Virus record (IMG/VR): IMGVR_UViG_2541047891_000004 | Location: 1-40,492 of that record | Origin: a virus | Taxonomy: Duplodnaviria > Heunggongvirae > Uroviricota > Caudoviricetes | DNA: 40,492 nt | Reading direction: 5' to 3' (one strand) | Part shown: piece by piece, positions 18,255-19,526 of the stretch | How the letters are laid out: every line of letters begins with the position of its first letter | Position numbering within the stretch: position 1 is the first letter of the stretch | Position numbers and translations under genes: made by a program | The notes under the pieces: generated by a model | The model's input: only the letters and a program-made list of their open reading frames with translations | What the model was told of the DNA's origin: nothing | The model's database searches: none

Positions 18255-18349
18255 AAAATCATTGCAAAATGAGCCACAAACTGCTTCAATTTCGGTAAGC
18301 TTCGCATAGCTGTATCGCGAGGCAAATTAAGCGCATGAACTTTAATACA

Positions 18350-18378
18350 ACCCGCCATTGAGCGGGTTTTGTTGTTTC
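18350..18378 (+). terminator. Intrinsic terminator downstream of Q (tR'-like candidate)
   Basis: CCCGC-CATTGA-GCGGG hairpin followed by TTTTGTTGTTT. Confidence 0.6.
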
Positions 18379-18616
18379 TGTGGCGTGATATCAGAAACGA
18401 CATTTAATAATCGCCTTCAAAATAAATTTGTTTATACATTGTCATGTATATTTTAAGTGAAAGTGAATTATTCACATAAAATAAAAACATATAAATAAAT
18501 TTACACAACTTGACACAAAGTGTTGTTGCGATTGGAATATTAAATCGTATCATCGAAAACGGTTCTGAGGGGGAACTCTTCTTTGCTCGGTGATATCGCT
18601 CCCCTGAAGAACCAAT

Positions 18617-18692
18617 GCCGACTTAGCTCAGTAGGTAGAGCAACTGACTTGTAATCAGTAGGTCACCAGTTCGATTCCGGTAGTCGGCACCA
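18617..18692 (+). tRNA. tRNA-Thr (anticodon UGU)
   Basis: Hand-folded cloverleaf: acceptor GCCGACT/AGTCGGC, D stem GCTC/GAGC, anticodon stem ACTGA/TCAGT, loop CTTGTAA, T loop TTCGATT, 3' ACCA; 76 nt. Confidence 0.75.
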
Positions 18693-18695
18693 TAT

Positions 18696-18770
18696 GCGGG
18701 TATCGTATAATGGCTATTACCTCAGCCTTCCAAGCTGATGATGCGGGTTCGATTCCCGCTACCCGCTCCA
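18696..18770 (+). tRNA. tRNA-Gly (anticodon UCC)
   Basis: Hand-folded cloverleaf: acceptor GCGGGTA/TACCCGC, anticodon stem TCAGC/GCTGA, loop CTTCCAA, T stem GCGGG/CCCGC, 3' TCCA; 75 nt; 3 nt after the first tRNA. Confidence 0.75.
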
Positions 18771-19132
18771 GCATTTGAAACAAGCCTTATTGTATTGCGG
18801 CACTGGCGTATTTTTTTATTACGTGGGAGCAGGTTGTTTTGAAAAAGCATTCTGTTCTCTGGCTATGATTTGAGGCCGGGTGTAGCCTCAGTGCTGATTT
18901 TTTACGGCAGCAGAATGGTGCATTATCGGTGGAGATTTTGTATTTCCTGGCAGGGTCGGTGATGCATCATTCTGGTGTTGTAAAAGCACCGCAGAGGCGT
19001 TCCTCAGGGCGAGGGTGGTTTAAAGAGTCGGTTTAGCGGGAAACCACAGTATCCATACAGCACGGAATACTTCGGGAGGCACCCGACGCCTCGGTTTAAT
19101 AACAATTAAAAAATTCATCCCTTGCATTGACC

Positions 19133-19158
19133 AACCGCCATATCTGGCGGTTTTTTTT
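19133..19158 (+). terminator. Intrinsic terminator in the Q-to-lysis noncoding interval
   Basis: CCGCCA-TATC-TGGCGG hairpin followed by T8. Confidence 0.65.
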
Positions 19159-19485
19159 ATTCCTTTCTCAGGACAAAAAAAGACACGAGCATCCAGGAAT
19201 ACTCGTGGGACAACGTCCTTTGGATAGCAATTTGCGAGAGGGTGAAAAGTAGCGCGGTCGTCGGATTAAGACCGCGGGACAAAGTCCATGAAGAATAATA
19301 AGTATTGGCCCCCTTCCGGGGACATGTTCATACTACTAAGCTTCAGAAGTGGTTTAAATCCTCAAATTAACCTTAATTTCCGATAAGTCTTATTTCATTT
19401 CTTTGCGCCACATCTGGTGCGCATCAAATAACGCCACGCAAAGGGCATCTGCGGATGCCGGTGCTTTTGACGGGGTGTTTTTTAC

Positions 19486-19507
19486 GGGCCGCTGGTGGCC
19501 CTTTTTT
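19486..19507 (+). terminator. Intrinsic terminator immediately upstream of the holin gene
   Basis: GGGCC-GCTGGT-GGCCC hairpin followed by TTTTTTATTT; holin RBS begins 7 nt later. Confidence 0.65.
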
Positions 19508-19526
19508 ATTTACAGGAGAAAAAAGT

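Follow-up and report, generated by a model that had tools for sequence, protein, structure and literature searches.

The stretch of DNA analysed here, referred to as the window, is the 40,492-nucleotide (nt) IMG/VR virus record IMGVR_UViG_2541047891_000004 (Caudoviricetes), and our subject is the interval at positions 18255-19526 between its Q-type late antiterminator gene and the holin gene that opens the lysis cassette. We consider this interval likely to be the late-operon leader, or 'moron' slot, of a lambdoid prophage, filled with RNA genes instead of protein cargo. Both strands contribute: two transfer RNAs (tRNAs) and a diverged relative of the STnc100 and PasD small RNAs on the plus strand, and a likely, unnamed small RNA on the minus strand. 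The combination of tRNAs with a convergent small-RNA pair is a known prophage pattern and not a new kind of system; new are the parts, namely a branch of the STnc100/PasD group that is missed by Rfam and, plausibly, the family of its partner. The interval was compared with 80 IMG/VR loci encoding the same Q family, and with phage and RefSeq matches.

By its sequence and predicted fold, the plus-strand element at 18988-19165 is a third branch of the STnc100/PasD group.

18988-19165, plus strand: small-RNA gene of the STnc100/PasD structural family (covariance models, covariation)
18994-18999 and 19087-19092, plus strand: P1 helix, GAGGCG pairing with CGCCTC
19073-19085, plus strand: invariant hairpin CGGG-AGGCA-CCCG
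19093-19132, plus strand: AU-rich linker
19133-19152 with U8 to 19158, plus strand: small-RNA terminator (terminator scan)

IMG/VR yielded 41 distinct members of the window's subfamily, and RNAalifold of 26 of them returned five helices and the terminator. In this fold 98.1% of cells were paired, compared with 41-51% when the partners were slid, six pairs carried double changes, and the covariation score was reached by none of 500 shuffles. A covariance model built only from the window subfamily (R1), which scores the window's 18988-19165 at 211 bits, recognised STnc100 sequences of Rfam level at 45-52 bits with E values down to 1.6e-11, among them those of the loci L070 (52.3 bits) and L025 (49 bits); the L025 sequence matched by R1 scores 145.8 bits as STnc100 in Rfam. 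The same model found PasD2 (21.1 bits, E = 0.003) and PasD1 (17.9 bits, E = 0.02) of enteropathogenic Escherichia coli (EPEC) E2348/69 at exactly their published coordinates. A fold of the whole family, comprising 49 sequences with Rfam-level STnc100 and both PasD RNAs included, kept 94.8% of cells paired (37-51% slid), with double changes in 33 of 37 pairs as opposed to 9-14 in the slid controls. P1 covaries across subfamilies and takes at least eight complementary forms, such as GTTTGGTG/CACCAAAC, TTGCGGTG/CACCGCAA, TTGGGGCG/TGCCCCAA and GCATGATG/CATCATGC; four of the five pairs of the CGGG-AGGCA-CCCG helix never vary in the 49-sequence alignment, PasD having a shortened version. The window RNA shares with the superfamily a P1 that encloses P2-P5 with compensatory change, mutual detection by models and the invariant hairpin; like other members, it lies on the late-transcript strand between Q/pR' and the lysis genes and ends in an intrinsic terminator.

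STnc100 (RF02076), which is represented by EcOnc05, EcOnc06 and EcOnc27 of enterohaemorrhagic E. coli (EHEC) Sakai, resembles the window RNA in its five helices, invariant hairpin, single-stranded linker and terminator, in its place and orientation between the late promoter pR' and the lysis genes, and in its arrangement with a convergent partner. Compared with STnc100, however, the P1, P2 and P4 sequences of the window RNA have all been replaced by compensatory variants, its linker and seed differ, its partner is neither AgvB nor AsxR, and it is tightly linked to a tRNA-Gly gene about 220 nt upstream. The end of tRNA-Gly lies 296-304 nt before the core in 34 of the 41 distinct contexts of the window type, whereas 48 of 64 members of other subfamilies have no tRNA upstream of it. 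True STnc100 occupies the corresponding slot in related loci that have the same Q, and the Northern probes for EcOnc05, EcOnc06 and EcOnc27 used by Tree et al. (2014) map onto those copies; none of these probes matched the window. EcOnc27 gave bands of about 235 and 247 nt, the 247-nt band being destabilised without Hfq. PasD1 and PasD2 (EPEC E2348/69; Pearl Mizrahi et al., 2021) are, like the window RNA, prophage small RNAs between Q and holin, but have no full P5 hairpin, a UGUGAG seed, a Q of family PF03589 and a good TTGACT promoter of their own. PasD is Northern-verified and Hfq-dependent, and has many trans partners in RNA interaction by ligation and sequencing (RIL-seq); it has been linked to STnc100 by structure despite having no BLAST similarity to it (preprint of Zhu, Shabalina and Storz, 2026). 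By analogy with its relatives EcOnc27 and PasD, the window RNA may be expected to accumulate as a discrete, Hfq-associated RNA. PasD is reported to be largely restricted to pathogenic strains, whereas the window subfamily also occurs in strains such as E. coli W.

Several related loci carry more than one member of the family. The IMG/VR phage contigs L168 (3794-3962, 7875-9016 and a core at 11099) and L169 (8303-8742, 12820-12965 and cores near 5627 and 5887) contain four to six STnc100-family copies, several of them in tandem and each with a different P1, in what looks like a small-RNA array. Loci of the L065 type have two members in tandem (4848-5003 and 5317-5467), of which the first scores 40.6 bits with R1 and combines a degenerate core, ACAAGACACCCG, with a terminator that shares 76% identity with that of the window, and the second is true STnc100 (86.6 bits with Rfam). 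In L002, the LT-IIb enterotoxin phage SerU-LTIIb (KU052038), the tRNA pair, STnc100-like RNA and holin module are duplicated as a set (1110-2424 and 3027-4127), and each of the two tRNA-plus-small-RNA copies matches the window at 79-89% with different P1 and P4 variants. The record labels the first of these tRNAs 'Arg', where we suspect Thr.

On the opposite strand, downstream of the STnc100/PasD-type RNA, lies a candidate for its convergent partner.

19239-19329, minus strand: candidate small RNA of about 80 nt (model R2, 108.5 bits; covarying hairpins)
19323-19308, minus strand: 5' hairpin
CAAUACUUAUUAUUCUUCA, minus strand: linker, a 20-nt AU-rich single strand
19287-19277, minus strand: small hairpin GGAC-UUU-GUCC
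19276-19270/19259-19253, minus strand: terminator stem, with a weak U-run at 19248-19245
19330-19358, minus strand: predicted promoter, -35 TTTAAA (19358-19353), 17-nt spacer, -10 TAGTAT (19335-19330)
19170-19234, minus strand: second terminator unit, GGAC-GUU-GUCC, then CACGAG...CUCGUG (19207-19184) and U7 (19181-19175)

The minus-strand RNA folds at -26.4 kcal/mol (z = -2.9), and 93% of cells in its alignment are paired as compared with 40-52% when partners are slid, with double changes in three terminator pairs and two pairs of the 5' hairpin; U-G pairs within 19239-19329 occur on the minus strand only. Four variants (A-D) have a common 3' domain and different 5' parts, and three of them have a -35/-10 pair of their own. 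The TGGTTTAAA of the predicted promoter is kept in related variants, variant B has TAATAT as its -10, variant C combines an unrelated 5' part with a TTTAAA-N17-TATACT of its own, and variant D has a -10-like hexamer, TAAAAT. After the terminator, most variants have a run of U6-U9. The 3'-domain motif was found 80 times in 78 loci, on the strand opposite an STnc100-like core in all 80 cases and within 400 nt of it in 70. Of 5,426 complete E. coli genomes, 369 contain the element, which is unannotated in most of the matches listed. Its CUUCAUGG is complementary to AUGAAG. The unit at 19234-19170, which has a 10-bp stem in the terminator scan, repeats the same 3' design, was the second-best R2 match in the 40-kb window (13.8 bits, E = 0.17) and was found only in window-type loci; its sequence points either to a diverged tandem copy of the 3' domain or to a back-up terminator of the minus-strand RNA.

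We considered HnrS, AgvB, AsxR and PasA as possible identities for the minus-strand RNA and rejected them, as R2 found no match in the late regions of Sakai Sp5 and Sp10, the late regions of E2348/69, L025 or L026, which include regions that hold AgvB, AsxR and PasA and are expected to hold HnrS. The AgvB sequence of L025 is unrelated to the minus-strand RNA, and Rfam searches of 18200-19600 on both strands at E values up to 10 gave no match to AgvB or AsxR (RF02702/RF02703). A megablast search of E. coli genomes with variant D found no match, and a literature search for the loop UUAAUCCGAC and its complement returned only unrelated eukaryotic primers. Convergent small-RNA pairs that include the 'anti-sRNAs' AgvB and AsxR were described by Tree et al. 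(2014) in the moron site downstream of pR'. The minus-strand candidate is like these two in being convergent to an STnc100-type RNA and in joining a conserved 3' part to variable 5' parts, a likeness of design and not of membership, but it has no sequence or model similarity to them, is about 80 nt long instead of 51-60 nt, has a 5' hairpin, and does not match their conserved 3' region of about 42 nt. The candidate may or may not have an anti-sRNA activity like theirs.

The main alternative for this strand is that the hairpins at 19170-19329 are nothing but terminators or insulators against antisense or converging transcription, with no small-RNA gene among them. We think this rather unlikely, since variants A-C, for all their unrelated 5' parts, each place a sigma-70-like -35/-10 pair about 7 nt before the 5' hairpin, with a good -10-like hexamer in D, and since the 5' hairpin itself covaries (CCCC/GGGG, UCUCC/GGAGA, CUCUC/GAGAG). 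The succession of hairpin, 20-nt AU-rich strand, small hairpin and terminator is moreover the typical layout of an Hfq-dependent small RNA, and the homology block begins exactly at the U-run, at 19245. The alternative gains from the fact that the best-conserved part of the element is its terminator-like 3' domain, from a promoter that is a moderate match to the consensus and was missed by a strict consensus scan, and from the 3'-domain sequence in the O103:H2 strain 12009, which lies at a prophage edge outside a late-region context and which we set aside as a remnant.

A small-RNA gene on the minus strand leads to a wider, joint reading, which we offer as a tentative possibility: that the element at 19329-19239 on the minus strand, part of which would recur as a second copy at 19234-19170, belongs to an undescribed family of prophage small RNAs and that, in addition, the plus-strand RNA comes from the transcript of the tRNA-Thr/tRNA-Gly operon. 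The family would be built on the plan of the AgvB/AsxR anti-sRNAs and be recognised by a conserved 3' scaffold, GGAC-NUU-GUCC plus a CGCGGNN-UUAAUCCGAC-NNCCGCG terminator, to which interchangeable 5' seeds with their own promoters are attached. If true, it would replace AgvB/AsxR as the convergent partner of STnc100-type RNAs in many non-EHEC E. coli prophages.

Taken together, the parts of the interval suggest how it may work. Without Q, polymerase from pR' (18262-18290) would stop at the terminator tR' (18349-18378) and yield a leader RNA of about 80 nt. In the lysogen, a promoter of the stable-RNA type at 18526-18553 would drive tRNA-Thr(UGU) and tRNA-Gly(UCC), which would read ACA and GGA. 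About 220 nt downstream would follow the 170-nt STnc100/PasD-type RNA, with its five-helix core, an AU-rich linker that may serve as the seed for targets or as an Hfq site, and its strong terminator; its source could be a weak promoter of its own, or else read-through from the tRNA operon that is then processed. The small RNA of about 80 nt on the opposite strand would start near 19323 and end at the weak terminator at 19245 or the back-up at 19175, and the two would form a convergent pair like STnc100 with AgvB/AsxR in EHEC prophages. The terminators at 19133, 19444 and 19486 would shield the holin gene from these always-on promoters and, after induction, Q-modified polymerase from pR' would read through all terminators into the lysis and morphogenesis genes.

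In this scheme the plus-strand RNA is the product. Alternatively, the STnc100-like core could act in cis on the late transcript, as a processing site, a stability element or an insulator of the lysis genes, and the small RNA would be a by-product. Such a role would suit a core that lies always on the Q-to-lysis strand (in 39 of the first 86 loci, those matching the exact 18-nt core pattern) and that is far better conserved over P1-P5 than in the presumed seed linker, and it would also suit the absence from the literature of a known function for STnc100 and from the window subfamily of a convincing promoter of its own. A cis element nevertheless seems quite improbable to us: PasD and EcOnc27 accumulate as discrete RNAs, with Hfq dependence of PasD and of the 247-nt EcOnc27, PasD has many trans partners in RIL-seq, and the element ends in its own strong terminator, while the four to six copies in L168 and L169 fit diversifying trans-regulators better than a single cis site.

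A protein-coding reading was rejected. Of the 16 open reading frames (ORFs) of at least 30 amino acids (aa) in the interval, 15 were broken in at least two of 12 homologous loci, and the sixteenth (19288-19386, 32 aa) was broken in one of the 12, with further variants showing 1-nt indels; the two 'hypothetical proteins' annotated in the phage vB_EcoS-683R6 were likewise discounted, as homologues have frameshifts and stops there. A preliminary description of this DNA had found no convincing ORF in the roughly 750 bp after the tRNAs and had considered the toxin cargo seemingly absent or replaced, and both statements were borne out: no ORF is conserved across the homologous loci, the longest in the interval has 50 aa, and none encodes a toxin of the Shiga toxin (Stx) type. 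Its suggestion that the noncoding DNA might hold a small RNA or a remnant stood in its first half and failed in its second, the DNA being dense with RNA genes and terminators. That the 750 bp are the decaying remains of a lost cargo gene, a toxin or another moron, without present function is extremely improbable: although related phages hold stx2AB or other ORFs here and one phage record, that of vB_EcoS-683R6, annotates two minus-strand 'hypothetical proteins', the ORFs are broken or frameshifted in homologues (15 of 16 in at least two of 12, the sixteenth in further variants) so that nothing resembles a gene remnant under selection, there is no similarity to the stx region of L026, substitutions preserve pairs in four separate RNA structures, and the module edges are terminators.

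Several results weigh against an interval of RNA genes as described here. The Rfam model of STnc100 matched 18967-19162 over its full length at 18.9 bits, short of its gathering threshold of 47 bits, with E values of 0.18 in a 1.4-kb search and 0.034 in a 271-nt search, and at the gathering threshold Rfam found nothing in the interval beyond the two tRNAs; the other Rfam matches at E values up to 10 in 18200-19600 (to microRNA, leader and small nucleolar RNA families) were dismissed as noise, the weak match to STnc100 being the only meaningful one. No similarity to PasD1, PasD2 or PasA was found in the interval by blastn. Folded as a single sequence, the plus-strand RNA is unexceptional (z = -1.3), the 49-sequence alignment was fitted to the model, which favours structure, and the shuffle controls overstate significance, the sequences being related by descent. 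The candidates for an own promoter of this RNA, TAAAAG at 18981-18986 or TGTAAA at 18979-18984, align with the TGnTAAAAA of STnc100 but are poor, with key bases missing, and are worse in L032 and L045; because this promoter is doubtful, the sequence leaves co-transcription with the tRNAs as a live option. On the minus strand, the window's U-run is weak (CUACUUUUC), in addition to the promoter that escaped the strict scan. All promoters and RNA ends given here are predictions. A scan of GTDB genomes with a 17-nt core pattern gave no guide to host range: almost all of the matches listed were in unrelated and mostly GC-rich genomes and look like chance.

The interval is entered from a late switch of the lambdoid kind.

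17718-18254, plus strand: Q-type late antiterminator gene (Pfam and PDB matches)
18262-18301, plus strand: candidate late promoter pR', -35 TTGCAA (18262-18267), TG (18282-18283), -10 TTCAAT (18285-18290)
18296-18301, plus strand: -10-like TAAGCT, a possible sigma-dependent pause site
18349-18378, plus strand: intrinsic terminator tR' (terminator scan)

The Q protein, with 596 relatives in IMG/VR, matched DUF1133 at 338 bits and Phage_antitermQ at 29.9 bits (cut-off 26), and its similarity to the phage 21 Q structures 6P18 and 6JNX, in both N- and C-terminal stretches, was distant but significant (E = 7e-5). Directly downstream, the candidate pR' has the extended -10 TGcTTCAAT (18282-18290). 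In an alignment of 10 diverged loci (A5), the -35 TTG, the 17-nt spacing, CTGCTTCAAT and TAnGCT were invariant or nearly so, and the pR'/tR' block accompanies this Q family in nearly all of the 80 loci, even across an insert of 0.9-1.4 kb. The terminator that had been noted after Q at 18350-18378 was located by the terminator scan at 18349-18368 plus TTGTTGTTTC, and its stem shows compatible changes between loci (CCCGCC/GGCGGG, CCCGC/GCGGG, ACCGC/GCGGT). For the predicted pR'-tR' leader (about 18297-18376, some 80 nt long) the folding energy is -26.3 kcal/mol (z = -2.9). A Q gene followed directly by a promoter and a terminator that co-vary with the Q type is the arrangement of the lambdoid Q/pR'/tR' late switch, and we infer that 18262-18301 is pR' and is followed by tR', that a leader of about 80 nt would be made without Q, and that this promoter would be active and load Q.

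The predicted leader of the window is like lambda pR'-6S RNA-tR' and like StxS in that a constitutive late promoter directly after Q would give a short RNA ending at tR' as long as Q is not acting. In Stx phages, StxS has a regulatory role of its own and is processed from 258 nt to 74 nt (Sy et al., 2020), and by analogy a regulatory role of the window leader is a possibility. The window leader differs from StxS in its length of about 80 nt and in its Q type, and homology with StxS was rejected, Sakai Sp5 having a different, 144-aa Q and a 258-nt leader. In L033, L035, L044 and L084 (about 4575-5390), isrK, a C4-type antisense RNA and an ORF for a 185-aa antirepressor-like protein lie between Q and pR'/tR', so a Gifsy-1-like IsrK module sits inside the late switch of these loci, the pR'/tR' block still being kept.

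After tR' comes the tRNA operon, with a branched structure between it and the small RNA.

18381-18553, plus strand: AT-rich upstream region and predicted tRNA-operon promoter, -35 TTGCGA (18526-18531), 16-nt spacer, -10 TATCAT (18548-18553)
18561-18613, plus strand: tRNA leader hairpin, GGTTCT (18561-18566) pairing with AGAACC (18608-18613), ending 3 nt before tRNA-Thr
18617-18692, plus strand: tRNA-Thr(UGU) (ARAGORN; Rfam, 73.8 bits)
18696-18770, plus strand: tRNA-Gly(UCC) (ARAGORN; Rfam, 65.6 bits)
18798-18903, plus strand: branched RNA structure, closed by CGGCACUG (18798-18805) and CAGUGCUG (18889-18896), then U6 (18898-18903)

The two tRNAs, already recognised by eye as lying 3 nt apart, were both called by ARAGORN, which found no others in the 40-kb window, and both exceed the gathering score of 29 bits of the Rfam covariance model, tRNA-Thr at 73.8 and tRNA-Gly at 65.6 bits. 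The tRNA-Thr gene is identical to thrU of E. coli K-12, and tRNA-Gly differs from K-12 glyT (L087, 574-648) only by one C-to-U and one G-to-A substitution, which we read as a single compensatory change of an acceptor-stem pair, C6:G67 to U6:A67. The host genes thrU and glyT are separated by tyrU and a 116-nt spacer, and the phage pair looks like a copy of the thrU-tyrU-glyT operon without tyrU. In the 35 long ORFs of the window, ACA makes up 28.5% of Thr codons and GGA 21.9% of Gly codons; codon use in the K-12 host is about 13% and 11%, respectively, and a use about twice that of the host fits codon supply as the role of these tRNAs.

The preliminary description had placed a promoter-like TTGACA-N17-TGGAAT upstream of the tRNAs. 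This element is present, one base off, at 18510-18538 (TTGACA at 18510-18515), but it is probably not the working promoter, because its second hexamer, which has no A at position 2, is not conserved in diverged lineages. The working tRNA promoter is probably the one at 18526-18553, 16 nt further downstream, whose TTGCGA-N16-TATCAT scores 9 of 12 matches in the promoter scan. Eight diverged lineages have TTGAAA, TTGAAG or TTGCTC, N16, and TATTAT or TAATAT at this place, 7-9 nt before a conserved GGTTCY leader and with an AT-rich upstream region. A separate tRNA promoter has been mapped between tR' and stx2 in the Stx2 phage Sp5 (Sy et al., 2020). The leader hairpin region is 99-100% conserved among 13 close homologues, and in L154 and L193 the hairpin shows a compensatory change, GGTTCC/GGAACC. 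The AT-rich region also contains a perfect palindrome, GTGAAT-T-ATTCAC (18463-18475), some 50 nt before the tRNA promoter. Most close homologues retain it, and a regulator might bind there, though the half-site spacer of 5 nt instead of 6 does not fit CRP.

For the branched, terminator-like structure at 18798-18903, RNAalifold of 13 diverged sequences kept the closing helix, mostly with one-sided G-U changes, and six inner pairs showed double changes; the structure is kept in lineages whose inner arms differ, and its single-sequence fold has z = -2.8. Its modelled fold may mark the end of the tRNA operon transcript or a site at which it is processed.

At its downstream end the interval meets the lysis genes.

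19444-19507, plus strand: two tandem terminator-like hairpins, 19444-19459 plus GGUGCUUUUG and 19486-19501 plus U6
19527-19919, plus strand: holin gene (Phage_holin_8; Pfam, 79.6 bits), the first lysis gene

The two strong terminators that had been picked out at 19133 and 19486 were recovered by the scan as 19133-19152 plus T8 and 19486-19501 plus T6, and the second does abut the ribosome-binding site of the holin gene, AGGAG (19514-19518) following directly on the last T-run and the start codon lying at 19527. This final hairpin (19486-19501) is also kept before a different lysis cassette. Across 17600-20200 the scan found nine terminator-like sites, compared with 2.5 +/- 1.5 in shuffles. RefSeq homologues of the window holin are annotated as 'putative holin'. 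In L144, L167, L186, L189 and L198 the last 100 nt or so before the holin hold a different leader in place of the twin terminators, which looks structured, with long-range pairing of GGGTGAGC ... GCTCACCC and no obvious terminator.

When the interval was compared with the related loci and records, it split into blocks that move independently of one another.

18255/18275-18380: travels with the Q family
18547/18616-19162: tRNAs plus trailer as one unit, ending exactly at the 19133 terminator (second copy of L002, L007, L048)
19163-19244: found in window-type loci only
19245-19430: more widespread
19422-19526: travels with the holin type, in otherwise different loci

The edges of these modules coincide with terminators or functional units, which we count in favour of RNA genes. 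Of 5,426 complete E. coli genomes, 170 contain no less than 80% of the interval; strains W (NC_017664, 1514662-1515931), 042 and APEC O1 are among them. In the 30 genome matches listed, annotation of the interval is limited to the tRNAs, except that a single genome also has a 'hypothetical protein'. A search of 50,697 phage records gave just two that contain most of the interval, vB_EcoS-683R6 (97%) and SerU-LTIIb (72%).

Among the closest known systems is the late region of Stx2 phages (Q, pR', tR', ileZ-argN-argO, stx2AB, STnc100/AsxR, lysis), which has its parts in the same order as the window. One example is the Stx2 phage L026, which shares 82% identity with the window in Q and 90% in the pR'/tR' block; there the order is Q, pR'/tR', tRNA-Met(CAU, ileZ-like), one uncalled tRNA, tRNA-Arg(UCU, argO-like), stx2A, stx2B, STnc100 and AsxR. 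This agrees with the earlier proposal that the interval occupies the tRNA and toxin slot of Stx phages, and alignment to the region between Q and the lysis genes of relatives gave the same frame in L026, with no similarity to its stx region. The window differs from Stx2 phages in having no toxin genes, another small-RNA subfamily with another partner, a different holin type with twin terminators before it, and tRNAs for Thr and Gly instead of Ile and Arg; the Ile/Arg set, which the preliminary description had named for Stx phages, is indeed present in Sakai Sp5 and Sp10.

Prophage small RNAs at the pR' moron site, such as AgvB, AsxR and PasD, rewire host regulation in EHEC and EPEC, and work on them has centred on pathogens and on RNAs that Rfam can detect. 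The window shows that a common STnc100/PasD subfamily, found in at least 170 complete E. coli genomes, those of laboratory and commensal strains such as W included, escapes the Rfam threshold and has no RNA annotation there. Its fixed linkage to tRNA-Gly hints at a small RNA derived from a tRNA operon, and the partner on the other strand, being unrelated to AgvB/AsxR, may represent a second, unnamed family. The models R1 and R2 could serve to annotate both RNAs.

Two further RNA loci were found in the window upstream of the interval. An Rfam match to the sok antitoxin RNA (16061-16210, plus strand, 103.9 bits) marks a hok/sok locus (hokD-like) about 600 bp upstream of the DUF1367-YbcO-Q genes, and the locus lies in the same place in most related loci. 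At 1557-1735 on the plus strand, a full-length Rfam match to RalA, the antitoxin small RNA of RalR (219 bits against a gathering score of 170), points to a RalRA type I toxin-antitoxin locus in the prophage's early region.

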